Part shown: positions 3,058 through 23,893 of the stretch, one piece after another
How positions within the stretch are numbered: the stretch's first letter is position 1
How the letters are laid out: each line of letters starts with the position of its first letter
Notes under the pieces: model-generated
What the model was told of the DNA's origin: nothing
Databases searched by the model: none
Seen by the model: the letters and a program-made list of their open reading frames with translations, nothing else
IMG/VR virus record: IMGVR_UViG_3300049042_000232
Coordinates: 1 to 25,254 of that record
Source: a virus
Taxonomy: Duplodnaviria > Caudoviricetes
Length of the DNA: 25,254 bases
Reading direction: 5' to 3' (one strand)
Position numbers and translations under genes: made by a program

Positions 3058-3273
3058 ATGGCAACTCCCGCTTCTTTGCTGGCACAGATTGACGCAGCGA
3101 TTGAAGCACTGCTGACCGGCGGTGTTTCCTCGTACTCGATCGGCTCTCGCACGGTCACCGCACTCGACCTGTCAACGCTCATGGATCAGCGACGGCTTCT
3201 GCAGGCGGAAGTCGACCGCGAATCAGGCGGCGGGATCTTTCGGCTGGCCAAAATGCAGAGGACCAGCCGATGA
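3058..3273 (+). CDS. Head completion protein (gpW-like)
   Basis: 71 aa, helix-SYSIGSRTVT-helix pattern, ATGA overlap with portal; lambda A-W-B synteny. Confidence 0.8.
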   Translation: MATPASLLAQIDAAIEALLTGGVSSYSIGSRTVTALDLSTLMDQRRLLQAEVDRESGGGIFRLAKMQRTSR

Positions 3274-5858
3274 TCGGATCCACGATTGACCGGCTTGTCG
3301 GGCTGTTCTCACCTGCGGCTGCAGTGCGTCGAACGCAGCAGCGGCGAACGCTTGAGCGGATGTACCAGGGAGCCGAAGCAAATCGGCTCACCAACAATAA
3401 GAAGCCAAAGAACCAATCCGCTGACAGCGAGTTGCTCGGCCCATTCGGGGCTGATGCTCTGCGTGCGTGGTCCCGTGCATTGGTGCGAGACAACGCCTAC
3501 GCATGGGGCGTCGTTGACACAATCGTCAGCTCTGTTGTCGGCAGCGGAATCACCGCACAGAGTCAGGTGGAAACGCCTGAGGGAACTGACATTGAGGACG
3601 TCAACGAACTCCGAGACAAGGTGTGGTCGGAGTGGTGCGAAGTCTGCGACGTCAACGGACGTCTGAGCTTTGCTGAAATTCAGCAGCTCGCACAGCGTGA
3701 GATGGTCGAAGCCGGTGAAGTGTTGATTCACTTCGTCAATACGCCATCTGAAAAGTATCGCGGCATCTATCGCCCCGTCCCTCTGGCGATCGAACTTATT
3801 GAAGCTGATCGTCTCGCCAACGAAAAAGACACGTACAAGGTACGCAGCACCGACGGTAACCGCATCACGCGCGGCGTTGAACTCGATGACCTTGGAAAGC
3901 CGTTGGCGTACTGGATCTACCCGGAACATCCGAACGGACCATACACGCAAGGGCGACAGGAACCAGTCCGAGTCGACGCGAAAAACATCTTGCACTTGTA
4001 TCGTATGGATCGCATCGGCCAAAGCCGTGGAGTGTCGTGGTTCGCTCCCGTCATGTCATGGTTGCGGGATCTTGGCGTTTACGTCGACAACGAGATTCAG
4101 GCGTCTGCTGTGGCGTCGTGTTTTGGTGTGGCAATCAAAACCGAGGGGCGAGCCGGCACTGGTTTAATGCCGTCGACCGACAGTGAAAGCACAGATGATA
4201 ATGGAAACGGCTTTGAATATCTCGAGCCTGCAATGGTCGTCAGGCTGCGTCCTGGCGAATCCGTGGAATCGATCAATCCAGGTCGTCCGAACTCCGCGTC
4301 AGAACCGTGGATCAACCTGATGCTTCGCGGTATCAGTGTCGGCACCGGTCTCAGTTACGAAGTCGTCTCCAGAAACTACAGCGGCACCAGTTACAGCAGC
4401 AGCCGTACCAGTATGCTCGAAGACCGTCGGCGTTTCCGTCGCTGGCAGAAATACATGGTGCAGCACTGCTGTCAGCCAATCTGGGATCGTTTTTGCGAGC
4501 AAGCTGCAACTGCCGGCGTTGATGGTTTCCCGTCAATGTCCGAAGTTCTCGACGATCGCAGGGCTGCAACAGCAGTCGAGTGGCAGACTCCTGCGTGGGA
4601 GTGGGTCGACCCACAAAGCGAACAAGCTGCGTCTGATGCTGCTCTGACATCATTTCAGAGTACGTATCAGGATGAACTTGGCCAGCGTGGAAAGAACTGG
4701 CGGAACGTGTTTTACCAGCGGGCCAAAGAAGAAAAGCTCAAGCGGTCTCTGGGCCTCGTTACTGCTGATATGGCAAATGTGGAAGCGGCACAGGCCGAAG
4801 CTCAACAGATGGCGGCGACAGGTGCTGCAGCGTCTGGGGATACCACAGCGCAGCAACCAGCCGGTGAAATGTCTGACATGAGCCGCATGCAGTGGAGTAG
4901 AAATCGAAAAGCTATTGAAGACATCCTTGCCGAACTAATCGCAGGCACTGCCAGCGAGACGAAGGCTCGAGTGTTTTTGCAAACGTTAGGGCTCACAGAA
5001 GCCACTGCTTCGGCACTGATTACTGATGCGATGGATGGAACCGTTGACACGGATCTGAGCCAGGAGCCAGCAACGGAAACTGTGCAACGTTCCGGAAAAT
5101 GGGTTTCGACAGAAGATGGCTCGTCATTGTACATAGAAGACGGAGTAGCCAAGACAGGCCCAAAGGGAAAAGAAATCGAAGACGGGAAAGACGGCCCGAA
5201 GCCTGAGGGGGCTGCGACGGAAAAGGCATCCAGTAAAAAAACGGAGGATCGTAGATTCCCCGGACGTCCTAAGGTTGGTGAAGTAGTCAATAAGGTAAAA
5301 ACCGACGTCGGTGTGGTTTCTGTTGTTGTATCAAAAGCAGAAGATAGTGTTGTCGATTTCGGTGATAAGGCAGGGCAGGTCATAGACGACGCTGTGCAGA
5401 TGCAAATCAAAATCGGAAACGAGGTTATCGCTGAAACGAAAGTCGGAACGACTGCAGAAGCAGAGCGGCGAGCCGACAAGCTTTTGGCAAAAATCACCGA
5501 AAACGCTAGTAAAGTCGGCAAGACGGCGGATGTTGATTCAGTGACGATTGACGACAAAGAAATAACGATTGAGGTTACGCACGACGGCTATGGTGGCTAT
5601 CACGGACATTTAACAACTACCAGTGCCTCTGGTGATGAACAGTATTTCAGCAAAAACGGGTTAACGCCGATAGAGCCAGATTTCGGGTCAAATCCTTCTC
5701 GCGGTGAATTCAAATCACCAGAGCAAGCAAAACGAATTCTCAATAAACGAGCCGAAAAATTTGCAAAAGCAGTAAATGCGAATGACGCAGAAATCGCAGC
5801 TATTGACGCTGAACGATTGAAAAACGCAGGTGATTCGGAATCAGACAATGAGTCGTAA
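3270..5858 (+). CDS. Portal protein, lambda family, with ~350 aa C-terminal extension
   Basis: Motifs LRAWSRALVRDNAYA, IELIEADRL, RIGQSRGVSWFAPV, SYSSSRTSMLE, WEWVDP in the first ~500 aa; ORF runs uninterrupted to 862 aa. Confidence 0.93.
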   Translation: MIGSTIDRLVGLFSPAAAVRRTQQRRTLERMYQGAEANRLTNNKKPKNQSADSELLGPFGADALRAWSRALVRDNAYAWGVVDTIVSSVVGSGITAQSQVETPEGTDIEDVNELRDKVWSEWCEVCDVNGRLSFAEIQQLAQREMVEAGEVLIHFVNTPSEKYRGIYRPVPLAIELIEADRLANEKDTYKVRSTDGNRITRGVELDDLGKPLAYWIYPEHPNGPYTQGRQEPVRVDAKNILHLYRMDRIGQSRGVSWFAPVMSWLRDLGVYVDNEIQASAVASCFGVAIKTEGRAGTGLMPSTDSESTDDNGNGFEYLEPAMVVRLRPGESVESINPGRPNSASEPWINLMLRGISVGTGLSYEVVSRNYSGTSYSSSRTSMLEDRRRFRRWQKYMVQHCCQPIWDRFCEQAATAGVDGFPSMSEVLDDRRAATAVEWQTPAWEWVDPQSEQAASDAALTSFQSTYQDELGQRGKNWRNVFYQRAKEEKLKRSLGLVTADMANVEAAQAEAQQMAATGAAASGDTTAQQPAGEMSDMSRMQWSRNRKAIEDILAELIAGTASETKARVFLQTLGLTEATASALITDAMDGTVDTDLSQEPATETVQRSGKWVSTEDGSSLYIEDGVAKTGPKGKEIEDGKDGPKPEGAATEKASSKKTEDRRFPGRPKVGEVVNKVKTDVGVVSVVVSKAEDSVVDFGDKAGQVIDDAVQMQIKIGNEVIAETKVGTTAEAERRADKLLAKITENASKVGKTADVDSVTIDDKEITIEVTHDGYGGYHGHLTTTSASGDEQYFSKNGLTPIEPDFGSNPSRGEFKSPEQAKRILNKRAEKFAKAVNANDAEIAAIDAERLKNAGDSESDNES

Positions 5859-8049
5859 AAAAGGCAAACTGCCTCCAATCAAAAACGCTTCACTTGTGCT
5901 CCGATCCGTCGGAGTTACCAACGGCGTCACTGACGTTGTAATCGCCACTGAAACACCGGTCAGGCGATACGACGAGGAACGCGGTTATGTGATCAACGAA
6001 GTATTGCTGATGGAAGGCGTGATACTGCGAACCAATCAGCAGCAAATGCCAATCGTTGACAGCCACGACGATTCCACAGTGAGAAACATTCTCGGAAGCA
6101 TTCGCGGCTTGCAAGTCGTCAACGGAGAACTTCACGGCCAGCCGATTTTTGCAAGCGATCCGGAAGCACAACTAATTTGCCAGCGGATGAACGAAGGTCA
6201 CATCACAGATTTTTCGATTACCGCTCTACCACTTGAATCACTGTTCGTTCCTCATGGTCAGTCATTCACGACGACACGAGGAGCCACCATTGAAGGTCCA
6301 GCCATCATTCACACGCGATGGCAACCACACAACGCTTCGATCTGTGCCACAGGTGCAGACGAGCTTTCTACTGTCCGCAGGTCCTATACAGACCTCGAAA
6401 GAAAGGTAAGAAGAATGGACGAGGCACTACTGGGCCAGCTCGCAGCAATGGGGTTGCCCGAAGGAATGACGGATCCAAATCAGATCCTGTCATGGGTCGT
6501 TGGCAAGATGGCACCGGCCAAAGCAACCGATGCAAAACCGATCGAAAAATCGATGGATGCACCAGTTGTTGCACCGAAGGAAGAAGAGGACGACATGATT
6601 GAAAAAATGGACGGTGCAAAACCGGCTGTTGAAGACCCGAAGAAGATTGAGGAAGCAATCGCACGAGCGTTGCGAATTGACGCCAAGAGACGACACGAAA
6701 TCCAGTCGATCTGTCAGGTGCACAAAATCGAGCGGTCATTTGCCGATCAGCTTTGTGATTCCGGAGTTGACCTCAACACCGCCAGAGAAAAGGTACTTGC
6801 ACGCATGGCTACACGTCCGGTCGGACAGTCAACAGATCGTGTCAACATGACAGAATCTGCCGATGACAAGATGTTCGCAGCAATGCGAGATGGTCTTGTC
6901 GTGCGAACCTTCCGTCAGGGTGGAATTCGTGGCCAGGCATCAGCAAAGCTTGCTGCAGGTCACGAAGATTTCGTGAACATGAAGCTCGGCCGTGTTGCTG
7001 AGATGTACGCTGAAAAGCTCGGCTGCGACGTTCGCCGAATGGCTCCGAAGGATATCGCACTGGTGGCGATGGGGCACCCTGGCACGCTTAACCGATATCG
7101 TGTTCAGCGAGACGCGTACCACACGACCGGCAGTTTTTCGAATCTGCTGCTGGATGCAGCGAACAAGACACTGCTGGCAGGGTACGAAGAAGCGCCGTTC
7201 ACGTGGTCAATGTGGGCTCGCGACGCTGGCACAACGGCGGACTTCAAGAACCTGAATCGAATTCGGTTCAGCGAAATGGGGACGCCGGAAATGGTTCCAG
7301 AGGGCAAGGAATACCCTGACGCTCCGATGAGCGATGCACGCGAGACGTACAAGGTCAATAAGTACGGCAACATGTTCACCATCACATGGGAAACTGTCGT
7401 CAACGATGACCTCGACGCCATCAGTCGTATTCCTGCAATGCAAGGAGCAGCCTGCCGACGTCTGCAGAATCAGGCCGTGTATGGCGTTCTGACAGGTAAT
7501 CCAGTGATGGCTGATACTGGGGCGCTGTTCAACACAACAGCACAGACTTCTGCTGGTGGTCATGCCAACCTGACGACTGGTGCTGGTACTCCGACTGTTT
7601 CGACGCTGAACACCGCGTATGTCAGCATGATGACGAAGAAAGGCTTGCGTTCGGATGTGATTCTCAACATTCAGCCAGCTTTCCTGATTGTGCCAGCGGC
7701 ACTCGGTGCAACCGCATTGCAGCTCGTTGGATCAATTGCAGATCCATCCGTGGGTGGCAGTGTTGCAGGTAACAGCAACACGAAAAACATCTACGGGCCA
7801 AACGGTGATCGACCGCTGAAGGTGATCATCGAGCCTCTGCTCGACGCGAACAGTTCGACAGCTTGGTATCTGGCTGCGAATAACAGCCAGGTTGACACCG
7901 TCGAAATTACCTTCCTCGAAGGCGAACAGTCCCCGGTTCTTGAAAATGAATGGGATTTCGACAAGGACGTTTACAAGTACAAGGTTCGCCAGACATTCGG
8001 AGTTGCTCCGATCGACTATCGCGGCCTGTACAAACACAACGGAGCGTAA
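5848..8049 (+). CDS. Prohead protease-scaffold-major capsid protein fusion (HK97-type protease plus Mu gpT-like capsid)
   Basis: N-terminal PIVDSHD...FSITA...ASICATGAD protease motifs, acidic helical linker, capsid motifs HTTGSFSNLL, ADFK, YGNMFTITWETVVNDDL, YKVRQTFGVAPIDYRG. Confidence 0.9.
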   Translation: MSRKKGKLPPIKNASLVLRSVGVTNGVTDVVIATETPVRRYDEERGYVINEVLLMEGVILRTNQQQMPIVDSHDDSTVRNILGSIRGLQVVNGELHGQPIFASDPEAQLICQRMNEGHITDFSITALPLESLFVPHGQSFTTTRGATIEGPAIIHTRWQPHNASICATGADELSTVRRSYTDLERKVRRMDEALLGQLAAMGLPEGMTDPNQILSWVVGKMAPAKATDAKPIEKSMDAPVVAPKEEEDDMIEKMDGAKPAVEDPKKIEEAIARALRIDAKRRHEIQSICQVHKIERSFADQLCDSGVDLNTAREKVLARMATRPVGQSTDRVNMTESADDKMFAAMRDGLVVRTFRQGGIRGQASAKLAAGHEDFVNMKLGRVAEMYAEKLGCDVRRMAPKDIALVAMGHPGTLNRYRVQRDAYHTTGSFSNLLLDAANKTLLAGYEEAPFTWSMWARDAGTTADFKNLNRIRFSEMGTPEMVPEGKEYPDAPMSDARETYKVNKYGNMFTITWETVVNDDLDAISRIPAMQGAACRRLQNQAVYGVLTGNPVMADTGALFNTTAQTSAGGHANLTTGAGTPTVSTLNTAYVSMMTKKGLRSDVILNIQPAFLIVPAALGATALQLVGSIADPSVGGSVAGNSNTKNIYGPNGDRPLKVIIEPLLDANSSTAWYLAANNSQVDTVEITFLEGEQSPVLENEWDFDKDVYKYKVRQTFGVAPIDYRGLYKHNGA

Positions 8050-15293: not shown

Positions 15294-16511
15294 ATGGCGT
15301 TTAAGGTCTGCTGTAGTTGTGGCCTGGCAATATTTCGTAGACCCGCTGTTGACGGTACGGCATTAAATAGTGATACCAGCGTGTCAGGATACGACCACAC
15401 ATGGACAGCTGGTGCGTCCGGACTACCGTTCGTTGATGTTCAGTTATACGGCGCGAGTGTCACGAGTTCTGATTTATACTCTTCATCCGGTGGTTTCTTT
15501 TACGAACTGAAAACAAAGCCGTTCAGATGGTCGTTTGGCGGATATGCCGGCGAACATTTATACGTGTCGGATGTGTGCCATCGGTATCACGCTCAAAACA
15601 GTTCTATAGGCCCTACAACATCGGGGCATTTCAACGAAATCAAAGTCAAAGAGATTCGTGTTGTGCCTCCTGCTGCCGCGCTTGCTGGGACTGGTGGAAC
15701 ATTGCAGTTGGCTCAAATCGCTTATGCTAGGGTATGGGTTGATTCTGTTGACGTCACTGGAATTGTATCGGTATTTGAATCGATTCCAACATCGATGTCC
15801 GACCTATTACAAATGCTTGTGATTCCGCTCGGTAGTGAAATTCTTATGAGCGGGTTGAGTATCGATATCGATTTTTGGTTTTTGGTACGCACTCGCTTTG
15901 CGTCAGCAATAACGTCTGGATCTCAGCAGTTGATGAGTGTGTCCACGACAGCATATCCGCACAACGGGACCAATGTTCTCGGAATGCTGTATGTCCAACG
16001 AACAGCCGGAACACATCGCACAATCACATGCGCATTTGATCGCCAAGGCCCAGGCGGTACAACTACCCTGACTTTGTCTCCTCAAAGTGGATGGAGTTAC
16101 ACAAAAACGAAAACACATGTGGAAATGGTGCACACTTCCAGCGGAGACAAAATAAGCTGGTACTACTCCGAGGAGGTCCCGTATTTGCTGGTGTATCGTG
16201 TCGCCGCCACAAACAAGCCTTCTAGCGCATATCCTCCGACGTGTAAATACGTTCCACAGGGTGGAGCAACCTTCAACACACTGTGGAAGCATTCCGTAAC
16301 CGGCACCATATCTCCGATCTGGGAAAACACGGCGAGGGATATGTGGGATCCATCCGTCTCAGCAGTGTTTGTCAATGAATCGCGTGCAACGACTGGTGCA
16401 AACACAAGGTTGCATAACTGGTTTTACCCATATACGGCGGCATTTGGTGGCGCTAACGAGAACTCAGACACTTATGAGGATTTCCCGATAGAAATCACCG
16501 TCACAACCTGA
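15294..16511 (+). CDS. Putative receptor-binding/tail fibre protein
   Basis: GAGGTG RBS; N-terminal CCSC; S/T/G/aromatic-rich; last gene of the tail block; more A/T-ending codons by eye. Confidence 0.45.
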   Translation: MAFKVCCSCGLAIFRRPAVDGTALNSDTSVSGYDHTWTAGASGLPFVDVQLYGASVTSSDLYSSSGGFFYELKTKPFRWSFGGYAGEHLYVSDVCHRYHAQNSSIGPTTSGHFNEIKVKEIRVVPPAAALAGTGGTLQLAQIAYARVWVDSVDVTGIVSVFESIPTSMSDLLQMLVIPLGSEILMSGLSIDIDFWFLVRTRFASAITSGSQQLMSVSTTAYPHNGTNVLGMLYVQRTAGTHRTITCAFDRQGPGGTTTLTLSPQSGWSYTKTKTHVEMVHTSSGDKISWYYSEEVPYLLVYRVAATNKPSSAYPPTCKYVPQGGATFNTLWKHSVTGTISPIWENTARDMWDPSVSAVFVNESRATTGANTRLHNWFYPYTAAFGGANENSDTYEDFPIEITVTT

Positions 16512-16573
16512 AAGCATTAGGACCGTCATTGATTACGCCCTGGCACCATGCAGGCACCAACGCAGCACCGGGA

Positions 16574-16600
16574 GAGCCGGCGGGGAAACCCGCTCGGCTC
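16574..16600. terminator. GC-rich hairpin between the convergent late operon and cassette array
   Basis: GAGCCGGCGGG-GAAA-CCCGCTCGGCTC; weak U tract (GCTGTGTTT) on +. Confidence 0.6.
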
Positions 16601-16653
16601 GCTGTGTTTATCGGGATATCACTTTGCGCGTGATATTTCGTATCACGGAGCGA

Positions 16654-16673
16654 CGGATAATTCAAAGTTAGCC
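16654..16673 (+). other. attI-like recombination site
   Basis: CGGATAA-TTCAAA-GTTAGCC has the same TAA-6 bp-GTT spacing as the attI1 simple site (GCCCTAA-AACAAA-GTT); GTTAGCCC complements GGGCTAAC of the first attC; no attC hairpin upstream. Confidence 0.6.
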
Positions 16674-17363
16674 CTCAGAATCAAAACACAAAACACCCTG
16701 CCGCAACCGCTCGACTGCGATCCGGCAATACTCCACATTGATCTCGATCCCGACCGCCCGAAGCCCAAGCAGTTTAGCGGCAACCAGCGTCGTGCCGCTC
16801 CCCATGAACGGGTCCAACACACTCTTTGCTTCAGGAACCAATCCGATGCACCACTTCATCAGTACCAACGGTTTTTGTGTCGGGTGAACCTTCCGTGGCT
16901 GCCCTCCGTTGTATTCCTCAATTCGCCCCATTCGAAACATCCGGGTTGGTAGTTCGATCGTTGTCCACGCCATTTCAAAATGTCCGCTCGTGTGCTCCTG
17001 CTTCTTGTCCCAGGCCAACCAGCATCGTACCGGCGGCAATGCGTAGTAGTTTCCGCCCCAAATGACTGATGTGTTCGCTGTGTCCACCGCTTGGTCAATT
17101 AACATCTGCGGCACAGTCGTCTTGTCCCATGTGTTTGCCTTGCCCATCATGCGCCCCCACAACGGGTCGCTCTCAGAAGACACAATCTTGTTGCCCAGCC
17201 CATACGGTGGGTCGGTCAGCAGTAGGTCAAACTTCCCCAGCGTCGGCAGCACGTCCCGGCAGTCGGCGTTGTAAATCGTAATCCCGTCCCGGTCGTAAAA
17301 GGGAACAATCGGGCTAACAATGGGTTCAACCGGAGTTGCGGTCATGCCGTTTTCTGCTTTCAT
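16668..17363 (-). CDS. Cassette 1: beta-class DNA methyltransferase (DPPY, likely N6-adenine)
   Basis: DLLLTDPPYG, HPTQKP, VLDPFMGSGTT; start inside attC1, stop in the GTTA core. Confidence 0.92.
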   Translation of the reverse strand: MKAENGMTATPVEPIVSPIVPFYDRDGITIYNADCRDVLPTLGKFDLLLTDPPYGLGNKIVSSESDPLWGRMMGKANTWDKTTVPQMLIDQAVDTANTSVIWGGNYYALPPVRCWLAWDKKQEHTSGHFEMAWTTIELPTRMFRMGRIEEYNGGQPRKVHPTQKPLVLMKWCIGLVPEAKSVLDPFMGSGTTLVAAKLLGLRAVGIEINVEYCRIAVERLRQGVLCFDSEG

Positions 17364-17402
17364 AGTCGTTCGTCCGCAACCCGGTTAACCCAAGCGTTCG
17401 CT
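17312..17402 (+). repeat. attC site 1 (91 bp)
   Basis: GGCTAAC-AATGG-GTTCAACC...GGTTAAC-CCAAGC-GTTCGCT; unpaired C and A on the top strand. Confidence 0.92.
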
Positions 17403-17404
17403 GC

Positions 17405-17728
17405 CTACTGGAACCCTGCTTCTTTGATCGAATCGATTGTCTCTTGCACGTGCTCACTAAACTCCCGATCGTCGGTACACAAGACGCAAGGCAAGTCCTC
17501 TGGCACATGATGACCAACTGAACCAACCTCGAAATCATCGTTGTGCCAGATCCAAATAGTTTCTCCAATACTAGGCACCCTTGCGAACCGGCAGACTTTC
17601 GTGAATAACTGGAACCCTCGCCTATGTTCACGCTTGAATCTCAGTGTCACCATCACTGGCAGTGAACAATGCGATGAACCCGAGTTCGCTACGTCTGCCG
17701 CTTCGGTTGTGTTTGCCGCTTCAGTCAC
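17405..17728 (-). CDS. Cassette 2: hypothetical protein
   Basis: GTG 17728 after AAGGGG RBS in the attC2 loop; contains RVPSIGETIWI. Confidence 0.7.
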   Translation of the reverse strand: MTEAANTTEAADVANSGSSHCSLPVMVTLRFKREHRRGFQLFTKVCRFARVPSIGETIWIWHNDDFEVGSVGHHVPEDLPCVLCTDDREFSEHVQETIDSIKEAGFQ

Positions 17729-17792
17729 GTTTGATCCCCTTTGAAAGTTGCCCCACATTCACCGCGAACACGGGTTATCGCTGTCGTTAGCA
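17661..17792 (+). repeat. attC site 2 (132 bp)
   Basis: AGTGAAC-AATGC-GATGAACC...GGTTATC-GCTGTC-GTTAGCA. Confidence 0.85.
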
Positions 17793-17795
17793 GGA

Positions 17796-18137
17796 CTAAA
17801 CCAGCTCGATCTGTGTGTAGCCGATTCGCCTTGCCCATTTGCGATCACCAACCATGATGTCGCCACTTCCGCCCCATATTTCCGTGTCGATCATTCCGGC
17901 CAACGCAGCCGGATCAACTGTCGGAGGGTTCACTATCGTCAACACCGATTGTCCAGCCGCGCCACCTCGCTCACGGGGTTCCAGTTTCAACCGCACCTTC
18001 GGCTTGTCCTTCGTCGCACCGTGGCAACTGGGGCAGTCGTCCCAGCTTGACTCCGGGTCTTTACCGCCACCGTTGCAGGTATCGCAATGCTCTGGGGCAA
18101 TCACTGTCACCGCTGCTATTCGTGCATCAATACTCAT
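17796..18137 (-). CDS. Cassette 3: CxxCxGxG zinc-finger protein
   Basis: CDTCNGGG...CPSCHG; fills the cassette between attC2 and attC3. Confidence 0.75.
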   Translation of the reverse strand: MSIDARIAAVTVIAPEHCDTCNGGGKDPESSWDDCPSCHGATKDKPKVRLKLEPRERGGAAGQSVLTIVNPPTVDPAALAGMIDTEIWGGSGDIMVGDRKWARRIGYTQIELV

Positions 18138-18145
18138 ACAAAGCC

Positions 18146-18236
18146 TGCTAACAATGCGGTGAACGCGAGTTGCCGTTCACGCTGGTTTGAAATTGAAAAT
18201 CTTTTGGCGGCAACCGCGTTACCGCACGCGTTATGC
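18146..18236 (+). repeat. attC site 3 (91 bp)
   Basis: TGCTAAC-AATGC-GGTGAACG...CGTTACC-GCACGC-GTTATGC. Confidence 0.9.
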
Positions 18237-18238
18237 TG

Positions 18239-18457
18239 CTACTTCCTGCAGGCTGTTTTTGCGGCATCAGTGGCCGCCTTGACCTTCGTTTTCTCGTAAT
18301 CATTCAACCACAGTTCATCGTCTTCGTTTGTCGATTGCCCGACACCAAATTCTTTCTTCAGCCGATTCCACGCACAGCATTCGTTGATCATCACACCGTG
18401 GTGCAGGATATATTTCCTCATCCGGATAAGATCCGCCCTGATTTCGTCTCGATCCAC
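18239..18457 (-). CDS. Cassette 4: small hypothetical protein (paralogue of cassette 7)
   Basis: AGGAG RBS and GTG start; HHG...ECCAW.RLKKEF motif shared with 19776..19961. Confidence 0.85.
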   Translation of the reverse strand: MDRDEIRADLIRMRKYILHHGVMINECCAWNRLKKEFGVGQSTNEDDELWLNDYEKTKVKAATDAAKTACRK

Positions 18458-18480
18458 GTTGAACTCCTATGGTCCGCACC

Positions 18481-18570
18481 AGCGAACAATGCGGTCAACC
18501 GGAGCCCGCTACTTGCTCGCTTGAAAATTGAAAATCGTTTCAGCGGTCCCGGTTACCGCTGGCGTTACTT
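18481..18570 (+). repeat. attC site 4 (90 bp)
   Basis: AGCGAAC-AATGC-GGTCAACC...GGTTACC-GCTGGC-GTTACTT. Confidence 0.88.
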
Positions 18571-18783
18571 TGACTGATTGTGTTGTCGAATTGCCGCTTC
18601 GATGTGCATCAGCGTTCCGACTTGCTGCGACATCAGATCAATCTGCCTGTCCCACTGCTCTTTGACTTCCTGTCTGCCCTTGCTGTCTTTCAACTGCACA
18701 ATCACAGCCACACACACCAAAACCGTCATTGCACCGCCAATGAACGCGGCCCCACAAATAAAACTCAATATCACTGAATCCAT
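18565..18783 (-). CDS. Cassette 5: small single-pass membrane protein
   Basis: AGGAGAGG RBS; hydrophobic N-terminal ~30 aa then coiled tail; stop in the GTTA core. Confidence 0.8.
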   Translation of the reverse strand: MDSVILSFICGAAFIGGAMTVLVCVAVIVQLKDSKGRQEVKEQWDRQIDLMSQQVGTLMHIEAAIRQHNQSK

Positions 18784-18801
18784 GATCCTCTCCTAAAAGC
18801 A

Positions 18802-18892
18802 AAGTAACAACAAAATGCACATGAGCAGCGGGCGATGGTTTCTCACATGGCAACGCTGTCTGGCCGCTGCCATGTGATTTTGAGCGTTAGCC
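18802..18892 (+). repeat. attC site 5 (91 bp)
   Basis: AAGTAAC-AACAA-AATGCACA...TGTGATT-TTGAGC-GTTAGCC. Confidence 0.9.
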
Positions 18893-19726
18893 AGCATCCC
18901 CAAAGTCCAACAACTTCTGCGCGAGCCGCTTCCGAGCGATCTCGCAATACGATTCATTCACGTCGATCCCGATGAACCGACGGCCCATCAACCGAGCCAT
19001 CTTCGTTGTCGTCCCGCTCCCGTTGAACGGGTCCAACACGATGTCGCCTTCGTTGCTCCAACTCAAAATGTGGTCACGGGCCAACGCTTCGGGAAACGGG
19101 GCCGGATGGTCGCCGTTGTCATTGTCGTTGCGTGCCGAATCGCATACCCAAACATTCCACCGTTTCCCGTCCAACTGAATCGTCTTGTCGGACCTCCGCG
19201 TTATCTCGTCATTCGGTTCCCGAACAGTCACCGACGTTGTTCTGCCAGCGCTTGTGTTCCTGCGATCCATCAATGCGTTGAACGTCTCCACCTTTCCATT
19301 CGCCAGCACGAAGCAGTATTCAAAGACGTCGTGATACCGGTTCGGGAATGGCATCGAAAACGTCGTCTTCTGGAAAATCATCGTGTCATGCAACCGAAAC
19401 CCGATCTCCATGAACCGCAACGCCTGCCGGAAACTGGTTCCCGTCTCGCTGCCATTCACCGTCGCATCGGCCACAACCCACACTACAACGCCACCCGGCT
19501 TGATGACTCGCCACAACTGCTGTGCGACGCCCTCGAAGTCCCACGAATGCCCGCCGTAAACTCTGAGGGAATCGTATGGCGGCGACGTGACCACCAAGTC
19601 GATTGACGCATCAGGGAAGCCTTGCATCGTTGCCACGTTGTCACCGCAGACGATCGAATCCAAAGGCAAAGGCTGGCTAACAATGGGTTCAACCGGAGTT
19701 GCGGTCATGCCGTTTTCTGCTTTCAT
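18887..19726 (-). CDS. Cassette 6: beta-class DNA methyltransferase (SPPY, likely N4-cytosine)
   Basis: DLVVTSPPYD, HPAPFP, VLDPFNGSGTT; start inside attC6, stop in the GTTA core. Confidence 0.92.
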   Translation of the reverse strand: MKAENGMTATPVEPIVSQPLPLDSIVCGDNVATMQGFPDASIDLVVTSPPYDSLRVYGGHSWDFEGVAQQLWRVIKPGGVVVWVVADATVNGSETGTSFRQALRFMEIGFRLHDTMIFQKTTFSMPFPNRYHDVFEYCFVLANGKVETFNALMDRRNTSAGRTTSVTVREPNDEITRRSDKTIQLDGKRWNVWVCDSARNDNDNGDHPAPFPEALARDHILSWSNEGDIVLDPFNGSGTTTKMARLMGRRFIGIDVNESYCEIARKRLAQKLLDFGDAG

Positions 19727-19765
19727 AGTCTTTCGTCCGCAACCCGGTTAACCCAAGCGTTAGTT
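19675..19765 (+). repeat. attC site 6 (91 bp), near-identical to attC1
   Basis: 19675..19761 matches 17312..17398 at 86 of 87 nt. Confidence 0.92.
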
Positions 19766-19775
19766 TGACAGCCAA

Positions 19776-19961
19776 TCAAACATTGATTTTCTGACTCTGA
19801 TACCAACGCAGCCACCGCTCGTCATCCTCTTCGGTTGTCTGCCCAACGTCGAATTCTTTTTTCAACCTATCCCACGCGCAGCACTCTCCGATGCCGATTC
19901 CGTGATGAATCACGTATTTACGCATCAGAATCAGCTCTGCTTTGACCTGATCTCTGTCCAC
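19776..19961 (-). CDS. Cassette 7: small hypothetical protein (paralogue of cassette 4)
   Basis: GTG 19961 after GAGGGTG; aligns without gaps to the cassette 4 product. Confidence 0.85.
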   Translation of the reverse strand: MDRDQVKAELILMRKYVIHHGIGIGECCAWDRLKKEFDVGQTTEEDDERWLRWYQSQKINV

Positions 19962-19976
19962 GTCTTCACCCTCGCA

Positions 19977-20066
19977 AACTAACAAAGCATTCCACCGGAG
20001 TGCCGCACCATCCGTTTTCAGAAATCCACACCGGGCTGCGGCACCCGGTGAATGCCGTCGTTATTT
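19977..20066 (+). repeat. attC site 7 (90 bp)
   Basis: AACTAAC-AAAGC-ATTCCACC...GGTGAAT-GCCGTC-GTTATTT. Confidence 0.9.
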
Positions 20067-20327
20067 GCTCAGAAATTTAAACGGCTCGAAGTCATCAAGA
20101 TCGAACCATATGTTCGGCAAAAACTCGTCACTCGTGTTGTTCCAGCAGTCATCACAGATCGTTTTACCGTCCCACATTTTCAGCGTCGCTGCAGGATGGC
20201 ACGTTGGCGCGTCACCTTCGGCACAATAATCACACGCGAATAGTGCGTGCTTCCGTAGCCATTCCTCGGAACCGCAAATAACAAGGCGATCAACCGGAGC
20301 GGTATCCTCTCGTTTTTGGTTTTCCAT
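20061..20327 (-). CDS. Cassette 8: small Cys/His zinc-binding protein
   Basis: CDYC...CH...CDDC; GGAG RBS and ATG inside attC8; stop in the GTTA core. Confidence 0.8.
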   Translation of the reverse strand: MENQKREDTAPVDRLVICGSEEWLRKHALFACDYCAEGDAPTCHPAATLKMWDGKTICDDCWNNTSDEFLPNIWFDLDDFEPFKFLSK

Positions 20328-20364
20328 GTTTTACTCCCCGCCCGGTTATCGCCGGGCGTTCACC
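20276..20364 (+). repeat. attC site 8 (89 bp)
   Basis: AAATAAC-AAGGC-GATCAACC...GGTTATC-GCCGGGC-GTTCACC (7 bp L'-R' spacer). Confidence 0.85.
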
Positions 20365-20367
20365 ACA

Positions 20368-20670
20368 TCAGAAATTGACACGCTGCCACGGCTCCGCACA
20401 CTCATCAGTAGGGTCACCACGAAACACCCACAATTGAGGCGGTTCGCTGTTATCGAAAGCCAAAAAGAATCCGGACTTATCCAGCATGATCTGTTGCCTC
20501 ACCACCTGCTGAACATCACGCATCATCTGTGGGTCTGTATCCGGATCTCGAAGTATGTTGCTCCAATCAATCCCGTAACTGTCCACCATCCGCAATCGCC
20601 TGACAGCGCCGGCAAGTGGTGAACAAGGCGATGCACAGGAGCCTTCGCTGCCCTCGTTTTTGACTTCCAT
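20368..20670 (-). CDS. Cassette 9: hypothetical protein
   Basis: GAGGAG RBS and ATG inside attC9. Confidence 0.75.
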   Translation of the reverse strand: MEVKNEGSEGSCASPCSPLAGAVRRLRMVDSYGIDWSNILRDPDTDPQMMRDVQQVVRQQIMLDKSGFFLAFDNSEPPQLWVFRGDPTDECAEPWQRVNF

Positions 20671-20708
20671 TTTTTACTCCTCAGGCCCTGTGATCTTGGT
20701 CGTTATGC
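20618..20708 (+). repeat. attC site 9 (91 bp)
   Basis: GGTGAAC-AAGGC-GATGCACA...TGTGATC-TTGGTC-GTTATGC. Confidence 0.85.
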
Positions 20709-20731
20709 CTGATGCCTTGTATTCCATCGCT

Positions 20732-20878
20732 TCAAAAGCTTTGCCTCTGCCTCTTCACGGTCTTGAGAATGCAGTCAGTGCGGACGTAAATCGTCTGCAA
20801 AATGCGGCGACGATTTCCGGATTCGTAGCAGTCGACTCGCCAGATGTTGCCGGTGGCGGCGAGCAGTGGTGATGGCAT
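20732..20878 (-). CDS. Small non-cassette leader gene of the leftward operon (48 aa)
   Basis: GGAG RBS before ATG 20878; lies between the leftward promoter and attC9. Confidence 0.5.
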   Translation of the reverse strand: MPSPLLAATGNIWRVDCYESGNRRRILQTIYVRTDCILKTVKRQRQSF

Positions 20879-20911
20879 GAAAAAACTCCGATGAGGGGGA
20901 TGTGATCGCAT

Positions 20912-20940
20912 CTTTTTACAGAATTGTAAACTGTTGTCAA
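20912..20940 (-). promoter_or_regulatory. Leftward promoter with overlapping palindromic operator
   Basis: Minus strand TTGACA-ACAG-TTTACA-ATTC-TGTAAA; perfect -35, weak -10. Confidence 0.65.
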
Positions 20941-20983
20941 TTGTGTTTGTTGATTTTTGTTTTCTGTGCTGTAAGCTTTTATC

Positions 20984-21178
20984 ATGACGACACCATTTTT
21001 TTATACAGCAAAATCTGCTGCTCACGTTCTCGGCTGCACTGACGCCCGTGTGCGTCAGATTTTAATCGCTGCAGAAGGGTCGATCGGTCGCAAGGCTCTC
21101 GGTGGTTCTGCGTGGATTTTGAATTCTGCAGATCTTCAGCGAGTGAAAAAACTTCTCCGAAAATCAAAAAAACAATAA
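20984..21178 (+). CDS. Small winged-HTH DNA-binding protein (Xis/MerR-like)
   Basis: YTAKSAAHVLGCTDARVRQIL...GRKALGGSAWIL pattern; basic C-terminus. Confidence 0.75.
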   Translation: MTTPFFYTAKSAAHVLGCTDARVRQILIAAEGSIGRKALGGSAWILNSADLQRVKKLLRKSKKQ

Positions 21179-21186
21179 ACCGGATG

Positions 21187-21215
21187 TTGACAGTTTTTTA
21201 CAGTGTTGTAAATAT
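21187..21215 (+). promoter_or_regulatory. Rightward promoter with overlapping palindromic operator
   Basis: TTGACA-GTTT-TTTACA-GTGT-TGTAAATAT; same architecture as the leftward site. Confidence 0.7.
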
Positions 21216-21255
21216 CTGTTTAAGTGTTTTTGTTTCGGTAACGTGGAGAAAAACA

Positions 21256-21387
21256 ATGAGCTTACTCTTTCGTCTCTTTCGAGACGCTTGGCGCTGCGGT
21301 GCATGCGGTGCCGTCAATCCGCAGTCCTTTGGTCCTGCGAGCGTTTGCGTTTGCGGATGCTACCTTCGAAACGGAGGTGCAAAATGA
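21256..21387 (+). CDS. Tiny zinc-ribbon protein (43 aa)
   Basis: GGAG RBS; WRCGACGAVN...CVCG. Confidence 0.6.
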   Translation: MSLLFRLFRDAWRCGACGAVNPQSFGPASVCVCGCYLRNGGAK

Positions 21388-21479
21388 TGAGTGAACTTCT
21401 CCCAATCGCCTGTTCGGTCTTGGCTGGCATTCTGGTCTGGAACATCACCGCCACGAATCTTAGCGATCGCAACTGGTAA
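21384..21479 (+). CDS. Tiny single-TM peptide (31 aa)
   Basis: GGAGGT RBS, ATGA coupling, hydrophobic LLPIACSVLAGILVW. Confidence 0.55.
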   Translation: MMSELLPIACSVLAGILVWNITATNLSDRNW

Positions 21480-21493
21480 CCCAATCACCACCC

Positions 21494-21734
21494 GCCAGGG
21501 ATCACCTGTGTTGAGGGGACAGCGCCACTGGTTCTGTCGGTGATTCCTGGCTTTTTGACCGGTATGTCTCCGGGATCAGCTCCGGTCGGTCAATTTGCGG
21601 TTGAGCGGTGAAACGCTCGGGCAAGTCTCAGGATGAGGGCCGCAACTCGAACAATTGATATCGCCAGTGTGTTGCTGGTGGTAACTCCCGGAAACCGTGT
21701 GCGATTCGTGCGGAGTCAAAACCACGGTTCCGGG
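21494..21734 (+). ncRNA. Candidate structured RNA (five consecutive stem-loops)
   Basis: Intergenic gap with stems at 21494-21551, 21555-21593, 21595-21645, 21663-21679 and 21687-21734. Confidence 0.4.
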
Positions 21735-21754
21735 TTTCTACGACAGGGAATGCC

Positions 21755-22027
21755 ATGCCAAAAGCAAAGGGAATTCACACAGACGAGGTGTTGCGTCGTC
21801 TGCGTTCCGGTGAACGGTGCTATCAGCGGATTCTGAGGCACGTCAAGTTCACTTCGGCTTACTGGTCTAAAGACCTGCTCTGGAAATTCGAAGACGGAAC
21901 GACCGTCACCAGATCCGCAGTCAAGTATCTGCGAACCAGAGGTCAGATCGCCATCGCGGAAGAACCGTCGTTTCGTGTTCTCAAACCAATCAACAAGGAG
22001 TGTTGCTGTGCTGGTACTGACTCGTAA
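21755..22027 (+). CDS. Small basic hypothetical protein
   Basis: AGGGA RBS, 90 aa, overlaps the next gene's start. Confidence 0.55.
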   Translation: MPKAKGIHTDEVLRRLRSGERCYQRILRHVKFTSAYWSKDLLWKFEDGTTVTRSAVKYLRTRGQIAIAEEPSFRVLKPINKECCCAGTDS

Positions 22028-22184
22028 AGAGGGTGAAGGGATTCGGATTGATGGCGGGATTTTGATTTCGATTTTGGAGATCAAAAAAGAATCGATCGTG
22101 ATCGGAATCGATGCGCCACGGGAACTGAAGGTTTTGCGGAGCGAAGTGCGGGATCACAGGGAAGGCAGGTCTGATCGTGCGTAA
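22008..22184 (+). CDS. csrA: Carbon storage regulator CsrA/RsmA homologue
   Basis: AAGGAG RBS plus GTG; MLVLTRKEGEGIRID...IVIGIDAPRELKVLRSEV matches the CsrA pattern. Confidence 0.88.
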   Translation: MLVLTRKEGEGIRIDGGILISILEIKKESIVIGIDAPRELKVLRSEVRDHREGRSDRA

Positions 22185-22611
22185 GTGGGAATTCTTCATT
22201 GCTGGAACACCAGTTGCGCAGCCACGGTCGCGAGCCACTTTTAATCGTGGTCAGGCTCGGATGTACACACCAGACAACGGAATCGTGAAATGGAAAAGAT
22301 CGATTCAGTTTTGTGCTCGGCTGTATTGGCACGGTAAACCGAACAGCAACGCGTTTTGCGTTGATCTCGAATTCGTGTTTCCTCGACCGAAATCGATCAC
22401 ATGGAAAACACGGCCGATGCCGTCAATCAGGCACATCAAAAAACCTGACAGAGACAATCTTGATAAAGCGGTTCTGGACGCACTGACAGGAATCTTCTGG
22501 ATAGATGACTGTCAGGTCTGCGACGGCCGAATCAGAAAGCGAATTGCAAGCGGTGATGAAAGTGAAGGGGTGTTCGTTTCAGTTTCAGTTCTAGAGGAGA
22601 GTGTCGAGTGA
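22177..22611 (+). CDS. rusA: RusA-family Holliday junction resolvase
   Basis: PVAQPRSR, KPDRDNLDKAVLDAL, WIDDCQV. Confidence 0.92.
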   Translation: MRKWEFFIAGTPVAQPRSRATFNRGQARMYTPDNGIVKWKRSIQFCARLYWHGKPNSNAFCVDLEFVFPRPKSITWKTRPMPSIRHIKKPDRDNLDKAVLDALTGIFWIDDCQVCDGRIRKRIASGDESEGVFVSVSVLEESVE

Positions 22612-23393
22612 AGATCATTTCGGGGAAGAAACCAAAACCACGGAGAACGCTGCTTTACGGCGTTCATGGAATCGGGAAAAGCACATGGGCCGCACAGGCT
22701 CCGAATTGCCTGATTCTGAATCTTGAAGACGGGCTGGATGACATCGATTGTCAAAGGACGGAGCACGTAAAAACGTTGCAGCCAGACGCGACTGTTGAGG
22801 GGCCAGCTGTCAATGATGTGCTGATTGATTTGGCAAACGAGAAGCACGACTTTAAGACGCTGGCAGTCGATTCGATCGATTGGCTGGAAGGTTTGATTCA
22901 TGCTCAGGTGGCACGCGATGCCGGCAAGGACTCAATTGCTGACATCGGGTTCGGCAAGGGTTACGAAGCAGCTCTGAAATACTGGGACGACCTTGTTTTC
23001 AAGCTCGACTGGCTTCGCAAAGAAAAAGGTATGCAGATCATTCTGCTGGCTCACTCTGCGATCGTGAAGCACTCAGACCCGGAGGTCGATTCGTACGACC
23101 GATACCAGCCTGCTCTGCACAAGTCGGCATCCGCCATGCTTCAGGAATGGTGTGACGAAGTGCTGTTCGCGTCGTATCGCGTTTTTGTCCGAAAAGAGGA
23201 TCTCGGATTCTCGAAAGAGCGGAACATCGCGGTGAGCAATTCTGAGAGATACATCCGGACGCAGGAAACAGCGGCATGCCTGGCGAAAAACCGGCTGCAT
23301 GACATGCCAGCCGAAATCCCGTTCTCGTGGGCTGACTACGCGAAGTATTTCCCGAAAAGTGAAGAAGTAACCTCAACAAAGAAAGCAGGGTGA
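22608..23393 (+). CDS. AAA_24/Sak4-like ATPase (ssDNA annealing)
   Basis: LLYGVHGIGKST, TLAVDSIDWLE, IILLAHS, AKNR; followed by a DUF669-like gene. Confidence 0.88.
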   Translation: MKIISGKKPKPRRTLLYGVHGIGKSTWAAQAPNCLILNLEDGLDDIDCQRTEHVKTLQPDATVEGPAVNDVLIDLANEKHDFKTLAVDSIDWLEGLIHAQVARDAGKDSIADIGFGKGYEAALKYWDDLVFKLDWLRKEKGMQIILLAHSAIVKHSDPEVDSYDRYQPALHKSASAMLQEWCDEVLFASYRVFVRKEDLGFSKERNIAVSNSERYIRTQETAACLAKNRLHDMPAEIPFSWADYAKYFPKSEEVTSTKKAG

Positions 23394-23893
23394 ACACAGT
23401 GGCGAGTCTTACAGATCTTGATCTCAAAAACACACAGGCAGGCGGATCGTTTGAACCGATTCCGGCCGGAGAGTATCCGGCGATTGTTGTGCATTCGGAG
23501 AAGAAGCCAACGAAGGACGGAACCGGCGCACGCCTGGAACTGAAGTTCCAGATTCTCAGTGGACCGTTCCAAAATCGAACGCTGTTTGATGGGCTCAACA
23601 TCATCAACAAGTCAGCGCAGGCACAGCAGATCGGACGCGGACAATTGAAAGCGTTGTGCATCGCTTGCGGTGTTCCAGATCCGCAGAACTCAGAGGAACT
23701 GCACAACCGGCCGCTCAATATTCGCGTAGCGATCGGCAAGGACCAGAACGGGAACCCGCGAAACGAAATCAAGGGTTACAAGTCCCGCTCTGAATCCAAC
23801 AATCAGCAGGCCATGAACATGATGCAGGATGCATTCACGCCACAGCCTGCAGCTGCAAACAGCGGTCCTGTGAACCCGTTTAAACGAGGGTAA
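23390..23893 (+). CDS. DUF669-like ssDNA-binding protein
   Basis: FEPIPAGEYPAIV, KPTKDGTG, RNEIKGY, flexible tail ending NPFKRG. Confidence 0.85.
   Translation: MNTVASLTDLDLKNTQAGGSFEPIPAGEYPAIVVHSEKKPTKDGTGARLELKFQILSGPFQNRTLFDGLNIINKSAQAQQIGRGQLKALCIACGVPDPQNSEELHNRPLNIRVAIGKDQNGNPRNEIKGYKSRSESNNQQAMNMMQDAFTPQPAAANSGPVNPFKRG

Follow-up and report, generated by a model that had tools for sequence, protein, structure and literature searches.

A phage-borne array of integron-type cassettes with genes on the attC bottom strand and probable translation starts inside some attC loops

Known attC clusters and translated recombination sites

Integrons are viewed as bacterial devices that place a new gene first behind a promoter. 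In phages, clusters of attC sites without an integrase (CALINs), often with orphan DNA methyltransferases, are already published, and IntI1 recombined five of the six phage CALIN sites tested (Qi et al. 2023, PMC9892861, in its accessible text). The part of that paper available to us mentions neither starts within attC nor genes inverted relative to attC, and inverted gene polarity was not found in the literature searched. The genes of phage CALIN TJE1 lie, as read by eye, on the top strand, unlike the bottom-strand genes of the array described here. In CALIN phage MW202573, the gene strand is the bottom strand of a site at 2619-2703, and the methyltransferase frame opens inside this site, upstream of the annotated start at 2794. 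Please note that TJE1 and MW202573 both gave an empty result with our relaxed scanner; the MW202573 site came from a later scan.

Recombination sites that are translated or supply a translation start have been described, i.e., attI1 ORF-11, short ORFs in attC and the GCUF1-OXA-28 fusion (PMC8876359, PMC3375312). These are on the top strand and act on the following cassette through coupling or read-through, whereas the phage attC start, set against attI1 ORF-11 and GCUF1-OXA-28, is on the bottom strand and would open the cassette's own gene in frame. The PeSLs of T4-type phages are repeated stem-loops between small genes, bounding mobile gene units; in the accessible part of their description (PMC2839356) they have a sigma-70 promoter and recombine by homology, whereas the phage attCs have attC boxes, encode residues and gave zero matches to a sigma-70 promoter within the element. 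The end of a PeSL carries the Shine-Dalgarno sequence (SD) and start at its 3' extremity, while SD and ATG of the phage attC sit mid-hairpin, 45-61 nt before R''. Synthetic peptide-encoding attC sites have demonstrated that one DNA stretch can be both IntI substrate and coding (Nivina et al. 2020, PMC7439510); those are engineered internal linkers, in contrast to the natural, N-terminal heads considered below.

Layout of the array and polarity of its genes

Here, we report freshwater phage DNA (IMGVR_UViG_3300049042_000232; the window is the whole 25,254-nt stretch analysed, a contig that is itself a 25-kb fragment) with nine integron-type cassettes and nine attC-type sites spanning 17312-20708. 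The attI-like site and the nine bottom-strand cassettes probably form a phage-borne inverted integron that a host integrase would rearrange and in which some attC loops would serve as translation starts. The features are as follows.

16615-16673, plus strand: attI-like site with GATATCAC/GTGATAT/GTATCAC repeats, L box GGATAAT (16655-16661), spacer TCAAA and R box G^TTAGCC (16667-16673); the simple site, L box to R box, is 16655-16673
16668-17363, minus strand: cassette 1, N6/N4 DNA methyltransferase, 231 aa (PF01555, 1.5e-21), putative start in attC1
17312-17402, plus strand: attC1, 91 nt, ATG 17363 inside; its bottom strand encodes MKAENGMTATPVEPIVS
17405-17728, minus strand: cassette 2, uncharacterised protein, start uncertain
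17661-17792, plus strand: attC2, 132 nt, long loop
17796-18137, minus strand: cassette 3, CxxC protein, 113 aa, own start after R''; PF00684 below cut-off
18146-18236, plus strand: attC3, coding head absent
18239-18457, minus strand: cassette 4, 72 aa, own SD and GTG, paralogue of cassette 7
18481-18570, plus strand: attC4, coding head absent
18565-18783, minus strand: cassette 5, 72 aa, N-terminal half hydrophobic, own SD and ATG
18802-18892, plus strand: attC5, coding head absent
18887-19726, minus strand: cassette 6, second N6/N4 DNA methyltransferase, 279 aa (PF01555, 9.1e-42), putative start in attC6
19675-19765, plus strand: attC6, 91 nt, ATG 19726 inside
19776-19961, minus strand: cassette 7, likely own SD and GTG 19961; in-site TTG 19985 also in frame
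19977-20066, plus strand: attC7
20061-20327, minus strand: cassette 8, 88 aa, putative start in attC8
20276-20364, plus strand: attC8, 7-nt spacer, bottom-strand SD GGGGAG (20334-20339) and ATG 20327
20368-20670, minus strand: cassette 9, 100 aa, putative start in attC9, in the second reading phase
20618-20708, plus strand: attC9, bottom-strand SD GAGGAG (20677-20682) and ATG 20670
22608-23893, plus strand: Sak4-like annealing protein and SSB (phrog_124, 4.8e-42; phrog_6015, 5.8e-35), outside the array

On the top (plus) strand each site opens with R'', a 5-nt spacer separates this from L'' (8 nt, including one extra base), and after the loop come L' (7 nt), a 6-nt spacer and R'; this box layout with AAC/GTT triplets is exact in eight of the nine sites, the spacer of site 8 being 7 nt. 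A strict pattern scan of the window returned the same number (8/9). The opposite strand gave no site and 10 shuffled windows gave 0 each; all nine were recovered when a 7-nt spacer was permitted. The minus strand was dismissed as the top strand, as spacer lengths and the extra base assign the top to plus. In bottom-strand folds the L boxes are paired in 9/9 sites; the R triplets are paired in the lowest-energy fold of sites 1, 2, 3, 5, 6 and 7 and unpaired in 4, 8 and 9, attC9 being the weakest hairpin of the array (-7.2 kcal/mol). The ends of the cassette bodies are complementary, so that a circle would re-form attC, at 9/9 nt in six cassettes and 8/9 in two; those of cassette 4 agree at 3/9 nt only.

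The array begins at the attI-like site (R box end 16673), which is common to related phages, and the stop TAA of cassette 1 falls within its R box. As nine sites on one strand, the array qualifies as a CALIN (at least two attC on one strand within 4 kb, without intI nearby). A profile scan of 34 ORFs, on a contig that is a fragment, gave none of the integrase families. Judged by its sequence, the array is headed as a complete integron would be, by an attI simple site with crossover at G^TT; where a complete integron has intI beside attI, the attI-like site is flanked by tail-region genes, and in place of top-strand genes with Pc upstream of attI, all nine cassette genes lie on the bottom (minus) strand of attC, the opposite way round to bacterial cassettes. 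Chromosomal and class 1 integrons share with the array the attC anatomy, the attI-type simple site, G^TT boundaries, matched cassette ends and reshuffled order. Unlike them, it is without intI, its genes face attI, each attC would come before the gene on the mRNA, and new cassettes would be expressed last. The first-pass annotation had observed the array correctly, with its inverse orientation and the attI-like site left unremarked.

The inverse layout, i.e., the gene on the attC bottom strand, was found in 224/237 viral sites versus 48/203 cellular ones, the site patterns deriving from this window and the counted viral sites being mutually related. For one and the same site pattern and a score margin of at least 4, the counts are 92/97 viral versus 6/104 cellular. 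Strand was classified by a codon model in place of ORF length because antisense frames inflate the latter; by ORF length alone, the split among 158 viral sites is weaker (107 inverse, 48 canonical, 3 unclassed).

A sigma-70 scan of 16450-21300 gave 0 matches versus 3.1 expected in shuffles; the host may use other promoter types. A promoter within the attC sites was dismissed on this empty scan, and we regard the signals supplied by the sites as translational only because no sigma-70 promoter was found. A known RNA family was likewise dismissed: Rfam at gathering score gave none in 16400-21800, with one chance-level match (E 0.67). Forty-seven records of isolated phages matched, and the 20 listed align over methyltransferase pieces only. 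RNA data sets carrying the array were absent among the matches listed, as were excision junctions among those listed from the best DNA run, where contigs lose rare forms. Contigs from two other runs align with cassette 3 starting exactly at 17786, the G of R'.

Start codons and N-terminal tags within attC

The first-pass annotation had placed five starts in the attC central loop, and ATG 17363, GTG 17728, ATG 19726, ATG 20327 and ATG 20670 (all minus) are indeed located there. The ribosome-binding sequences it had proposed for cassettes 2, 8 and 9 are present, AAAGGGG, GGGGAG and GAGGAG lying 6-7 nt upstream, and the three N-terminal peptides, the first 15-22 or so residues that would be read through L'' and R'', are encoded as it had described; in cassettes 1 and 6 the SD match is GGA only. 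In up to five cassettes, as read from sequence, the hairpin itself likely holds the start codon and the first 15-22 aa. In cassettes 3, 4, 5 and 7 translation most likely begins beyond R'', the SD matching at 4-5 nt (4, 5 and 7) or 3 nt (3); the bottom-strand frame of cassette 3 has pN/pS of 0.10 and 0.22 versus two homologues.

The predicted loop start is best supported for cassettes 1 and 8. Core conservation of the cassette 1 methyltransferase begins at P18-P21, and the first start beyond R'', GTG 17252, is already within the conserved core; in cassette 8 the next start is 35 codons past R'', and both homologues found share sequence from VIC onward and have other heads. Cassettes 1 and 6 have the same head on different bodies (attC1 and attC6 are 93% identical over 100 nt), and 27/30 viral relatives of cassette 6 align from residue 16 or later only; its downstream options, TTG 19669 and TTG 19663, are both without SD. 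Cassette 9 has one downstream option, ATG 20589, with a weak SD, and no relatives were confirmed in viral contigs by a search made without deep profiles, so that distant relatives may exist. The loop start of cassette 2 is uncertain: GTG 17728 (with AAAGGGG), ATG 17758 and ATG 17653 after R'' are all candidates, the last being the start in the database's gene call, and a homologue search returned only the protein itself among 5 candidates.

When the methyltransferases were aligned to their homologues, homology began only after R'', as the first-pass annotation had led us to expect. The N-termini of 119 homologues of the cassette 1 methyltransferase fall into 48 short, 59 tag-like and 12 other; the first residue of the 48 is a Met placed at the junction, and many different tags occur among the tagged ones. 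Neither of the observations that the first-pass annotation had named as telling against its reading, starts mapping downstream of attC or N-terminal peptides conserved in homologues outside cassettes, was made. One methyltransferase family is represented in three states: free-standing with a Met of its own, carried in a canonical cassette (L017-L019), and tagged in an inverse cassette (the window and L101). The tags evolve neutrally, with pN/pS of 1.01 (loop) and 1.11 (stem) over 15 pairs. In the structure model residues 1-22 of cassette 1 lack secondary structure, and tag pLDDT is 67-78 versus about 97 for the next blocks. A functional targeting tag was dismissed on pN/pS about 1, absence from 48/119 homologues and the lack of modelled secondary structure.

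Across the sites compared, a loop SD plus ATG opens in frame into the best ORF in 53/67 cases (14/67 are out of frame), compared with averages of 20.6 (max 34) and 26.6 (max 38) in shuffles. An own SD and start after R'' is present in 7/53 tagged versus 81/117 untagged genes, and loop SD plus ATG occurs in 77/224 inverse viral sites versus 10/155 canonical cellular ones. In the mRNA hairpin, 24-63% of the SD region is paired. The idea that a ribosome halting at the upstream gene opens the SD found no support in folding, as blocking the 5' arm lowered SD pairing in 0/5 sites; the stop codon of the upstream gene is between -5 and +11 nt from the R' edge in 8/8 cases. The earlier suggestion that the site is a source of expression signals stands for the translation start and the N-terminal tag, and found no support in its further step, that any captured open frame becomes a gene: no case of a new gene born from a captured frame was found, and the two cassette bodies for which many relatives are known are methyltransferase genes that existed beforehand.

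Cassette movement, the integrase and what the array may mean

Matches to the attI motif came from 15 viral and 7 metagenome stretches, a few of which are duplicates; six of those with more than 2 kb available are, by the scan, without chained attC. In related phages identity stops at G^TT of the attI-like site, and a different first cassette follows. A given cassette together with its head occupies different ranks in different phages, and in moved cassettes head and gene travelled as one. A perfect match between R' of the previous site and R'' of the following one was seen in 108/156 cases, versus 29/233 within one site, and the 9-nt ends match in 71/80 cassette bodies. Junctions lie 0-2 nt from the triplets in 119/171 and 103/128 pairs, which are non-independent.

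We propose that the cassette unit is a gene body between 9-nt inverted repeats together with its own attC. Transcription would come in from the early-promoter side (near 20900) and proceed to attI, so that each attC would precede its gene, not follow it. In some attCs, the SD lies at the stem-loop border and the ATG 39-52 nt before R''. These would provide the translation start together with an unstructured, neutrally evolving tag, the last residues of which would be fixed by the hairpin DNA sequence; other attCs are non-coding and their genes would bring their own SD. Excision and insertion at G^TT would carry the gene with its head, and the frame would survive; newly acquired cassettes would enter at attI, i.e., last in the operon.

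Concerning the enzyme, no integron integrase over the TIGR02249 cut-off was found in 50 viral records, and because of this absence we infer a host IntI. IntI over the cut-off is present in 24/32 planctomycete genomes carrying such sites, and similar simple sites adjoin planctomycete intI genes. One Planctomycetaceae MAG has a tagged array in the inverse layout, one site of which shares 87-89% identity with attC1/6 (L145), and an IntI on another contig (G057). The attI motif occurs in 1/398 Planctomycetaceae genomes (G735), which is without likeness to the window and without IntI and so adds no information, and a capsid search for the host gave 1/401 Planctomycetota genomes at E 1e-60 (34% identity). 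It is likely that the phages use a borrowed host IntI to gather ready-to-translate genes.

A recombinase encoded by the phage outside the contig could instead work the array and favour the inverse layout, which would fit the fragmentary contig, the weak tyrosine-recombinase matches in 10/50 viral records (5/14 near-complete ones) and the scarcity of the attI motif among the Planctomycetaceae genomes. However, 9/14 near-complete records are without a match at E 0.001, the sites retain IntI-type anatomy and host attI simple sites resemble the phage one, and we hold this to be quite improbable. It seems somewhat less far-fetched, though still unlikely, that attC-derived repeats act as homology modules like T4 PeSLs, with the Sak4-like protein and SSB swapping genes and no integrase involved. 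The genes for this machinery lie 2 kb from the array, IntI is missing from the viral records, PeSLs (PMC2839356, accessible part) have SD and ATG at their end and undergo homology-based recombination, and some same-body pairs switch head within the shared stem arm, e.g., L031_1467 and L061_2436; such exchange may be the source of some head swaps. It leaves unexplained, however, why identity breaks off at the G^TT of an attI that is not repeated, why the 9-nt ends match and why junctions cluster at the triplets in the (non-independent) pairs.

One may also accept a real IntI substrate and regard the loop ATGs as by-products of purine-rich bottom strands, with the true starts after R''. attC bottom strands are generally purine-rich (PMC5027507, accessible part), a loop ATG is found in 80/155 canonical cellular sites, and cassettes 2, 6 and 9 have downstream starts. 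Cassette 1 would then forfeit conserved residues 21-37 and cassette 8 the conserved first 35 residues past R'', and composition does not predict the in-frame excess or the near exclusion of own starts. We give this reading very little credence for the array, and consider it plausible for cassette 2 alone.

Returning to the inverted integron worked by a host integrase, phages with an attI-like site and arrays of opposite polarity suggest that a host enzyme is used to trade accessory genes, e.g., methyltransferases. The finding predicts mis-annotated starts in phage genes, as in MW202573, and the array would give natural examples of coding attC sites. Cassette origin is still handled as an open variable (PMC8352920, in its accessible part), and phage arrays offer a test set for it, with junctions readable to the base. 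More speculatively, and with considerable doubt on our side, a phage lineage may carry its own attI at the end of the early operon, parasitise the host integrase, and make cassettes by attaching DNA, at the R'' triplet, to existing attC heads that already include the ribosome site and the start codon, with a 9-nt copied end. If so, cassettes would be actively manufactured in phage arrays, and one could watch both their genesis and the activation of frames that had never been genes.

Gene orientation in the array and its relatives

The window, which takes up an entire virus record of 25,254 nt, carries genes for terminase, a lambda-type portal, capsid, CsrA, RusA, a Sak4-like protein and SSB, and a leftward ORF block sits between its tail-region genes and its early genes:

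to 16511, rightward: tail-region genes
16655-16673: attI-like site
17312-20708: attC1-attC9, with the minus-strand genes of cassettes 1-9
from 20984, rightward: early genes
21975-22184: CsrA-family translation regulator

A single freshwater run, which may be the source sample, covers 30 of 30 bins across 16400-21100, so an assembly artefact is unlikely for the leftward block. Nine attC-type sites were found (boxes named after PMC5027507), with the plus strand as top strand in 9/9; a strict scan recovered eight sites, versus none in 10 shuffles. The bottom strand scores better for 9/9 cassette genes, and the reading order is therefore attC, L'', R'', cassette body. Bacterial cassettes have a top-strand gene running towards R'' (canonical), whereas the window has bottom-strand genes running away from attC (inverse).

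Two degenerate patterns, both derived from the window and favoring its site type, matched 87 (first) and 95 (second) viral stretches; the first also matched at least 138 cellular stretches, of an estimated 900 or so in all. Flanks were taken from 80 loci per scan, leaving out identical sites and those with <250 nt of flank. Among the matches listed, a codon model assigned the inverse layout to 224/237 viral versus 48/203 cellular sites, where the sites are interrelated and the patterns window-derived; one pattern applied to both sets gave 122/132 versus 48/203, and a score margin of at least 4 gave 92/97 versus 6/104. Bottom-strand purine excess, an independent measure, was found in 144/158 viral versus 52/163 cellular sites, and ORF length alone called 107/158 versus 24/163 inverse, again among the matches listed. 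Single promoter-bearing cassettes with reversed genes occur in bacterial arrays. At three loci (L017-L019), relatives of methyltransferase 6, the N6/N4 DNA methyltransferase of cassette 6, occupy a canonical cassette whose attC, 72 nt long, follows just downstream on the same strand.

Cassettes 4 (18239-18457) and 7 (19776-19961) are paralogues encoding a 60-70 aa protein of no known function, preceded by different non-coding attCs; the body ends of cassette 4 do not match. A contig from run X1 shows 11 differences from the window over 19732-21100, clustered in cassette 9 (20452-20536), where a contig from run X5 carries the same variant letters.

Probable translation initiation in the attC loop

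The first-pass annotation had placed five gene starts in attC loops, with three ribosome-binding strings and three N-terminal peptides, and each is present in the sequence at its place. The 233 inverse sites were clustered by body into 200 viral representatives; 67 have a loop Shine-Dalgarno (SD) match of at least 4 nt plus ATG, and in 53 of these the ATG reads in frame, without a stop, into the best ORF, versus in-frame means of 20.6 (maximum 34) and 26.6 (maximum 38) in 1000 head-body shuffles. In the first 80 nt past R'', 7/53 tagged versus 81/117 untagged genes have an SD and start of their own.

The proposal that methyltransferase homology begins past the attC-encoded head (the tag) held up on alignment: across 119 homologues of methyltransferase 1 (cassette 1), conservation begins at P18-P21, and for methyltransferase 6 the alignment begins at residue 16 or later in 27/30 viral relatives. 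Of the former homologues, 48/119 start within 13 residues of the conserved region, 59/119 have heads classed as tag-like by a manual pattern composed once the heads had been viewed, and 12/119 have other heads. Where relatives had DNA and a tag-length or tag-like N terminus, an inverse attC lay upstream in 4/5, and the scan found none upstream of the fifth (L075). Both homologues of cassette 8 (2/2) share its body and differ in the head. No start codon lies between R'' and the conserved core in cassette 1, nor any alternative start within 35 codons after R'' in cassette 8; cassettes 6 and 9 have weak alternative starts downstream. Sequence comparison gives good support to an attC start for cassettes 1 and 8 and makes one likely for cassettes 6 and 9, and cassette 2 has an uncertain candidate start.

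The tag is best read as a passenger: over 15 pairs, its loop part has a pN/pS of 1.01 and its stem part 1.11 (0.10-0.22 in the cassette 3 body), and an AlphaFold model shows it free of secondary structure. The SD region is 24-63% paired in an mRNA hairpin; a folding test gave no support to ribosome-driven opening of this hairpin. GGA motifs, the binding targets of CsrA, are present near starts in attC heads, and the phage itself encodes a CsrA-family regulator. In MW202573, a published CALIN phage (L358:2619-3186), a methyltransferase frame opens within an inverse attC at an in-frame TTG preceded by GGAG, and the annotated start (2794) omits 36 codons. R'' terminates in ATAAC in 96/224 inverse viral sites, often as GCATAAC, whose bottom strand (GTT-ATG-C) reads Val-Met; the matching far end gives TAA, the gene's stop in 45/156 bodies.

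Cassette ends, head joining and movement

R' left of a body matches R'' on its right perfectly in 108/156 cases, and within one site in 29/233. In viral bodies (n = 148) the match reaches 6 nt beyond GTT, at 0.78-0.86 before falling to 0.24; in canonical cellular bodies (n = 82, among the cellular matches listed) it reaches 7 nt. In both kinds of cassette complementarity thus drops sharply 6-7 nt past GTT, exceeding the 4-nt R box, and this sharp end may reflect a templated step during cassette formation.

Near-identical heads on unrelated bodies, as at attC1 and attC6, lose identity 0-2 nt beyond the triplet of R'' in 119/171 non-independent pairs, and a few bodies carry different heads. Heads of L031_1756 and L061_4392 diverge starting at the spacer, consistent with exchange at R''; those of L031_1467 and L061_2436 diverge only past a shared arm, which fits either R'' or a homologous route. 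Low-rate top-strand recombination at R'' is known for some attC sites (PMC5027507). Taken together, the shared heads, head switches and low-rate recombination suggest that heads would be acquired at cassette making, or via rare R'' or homologous exchange. The earlier proposal, in which capture switches on an open frame, is possible at the step where a head joins; the traceable bodies, though, were pre-existing genes.

At the left end, a matching core lies near the stop in 43/65 first sites. The window's attI-like core, GGATAAT-TCAAA-G^TT with upstream repeats, is shared by 22 stretches, 15 of them viral and 7 from metagenomes (some are duplicates), and identity among them stops at GTT. An array of up to 11 sites follows in 14/22, tail-region homologues adjoin the motif in 14/22, and 9-nt ends match in 71/80 bodies of these arrays, the window's included. 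In six stretches (L385, L399, L400, L402, L403, L405) the scan chained no attC within 2.6 kb of the motif; these may be empty, degenerate, or carry long first cassettes. Simple sites adjoining host intI resemble the phage core (e.g., TGTATAA-TAATT-GTT and TGTAGAA-TTCAA-GTT; 4 among 25 loci). A host integron, L378, has three sites with identical R'' at 215-nt spacing behind an intI interrupted by a stop codon. Directly left of the window's attI-like site, a GC-rich hairpin (16555-16612, -18.7 kcal/mol), common to several relatives, could be a terminator for converging late and cassette transcripts.

Cassettes F0, F14, F1 and F7 vary in rank between phages, F0 and F14 keeping the same head, and contigs from two other runs match cassette 3 starting exactly at the G of R'.

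Host, enzyme and classification

A Planctomycetaceae MAG (L145) carries a tagged inverse array, one site of which shares 87-89% identity with attC1 and attC6, and on this basis the phage host is probably a planctomycete. The IntI cut-off was reached by 0/50 viral records (14 near complete) versus 24/32 planctomycete genomes, which favors host IntI acting in trans as the most likely enzyme. The portal gene (3270-5858; 862 aa) has a long C-terminal extension, its Pfam match stopping at residue 393, and GC is lower at 5250-6000.

The window's array belongs to a genuine and widespread variant of integron cassette arrays; by definition it is a CALIN and not a complete integron. Judged from its sequence, it would work like an integron with the polarity reversed.
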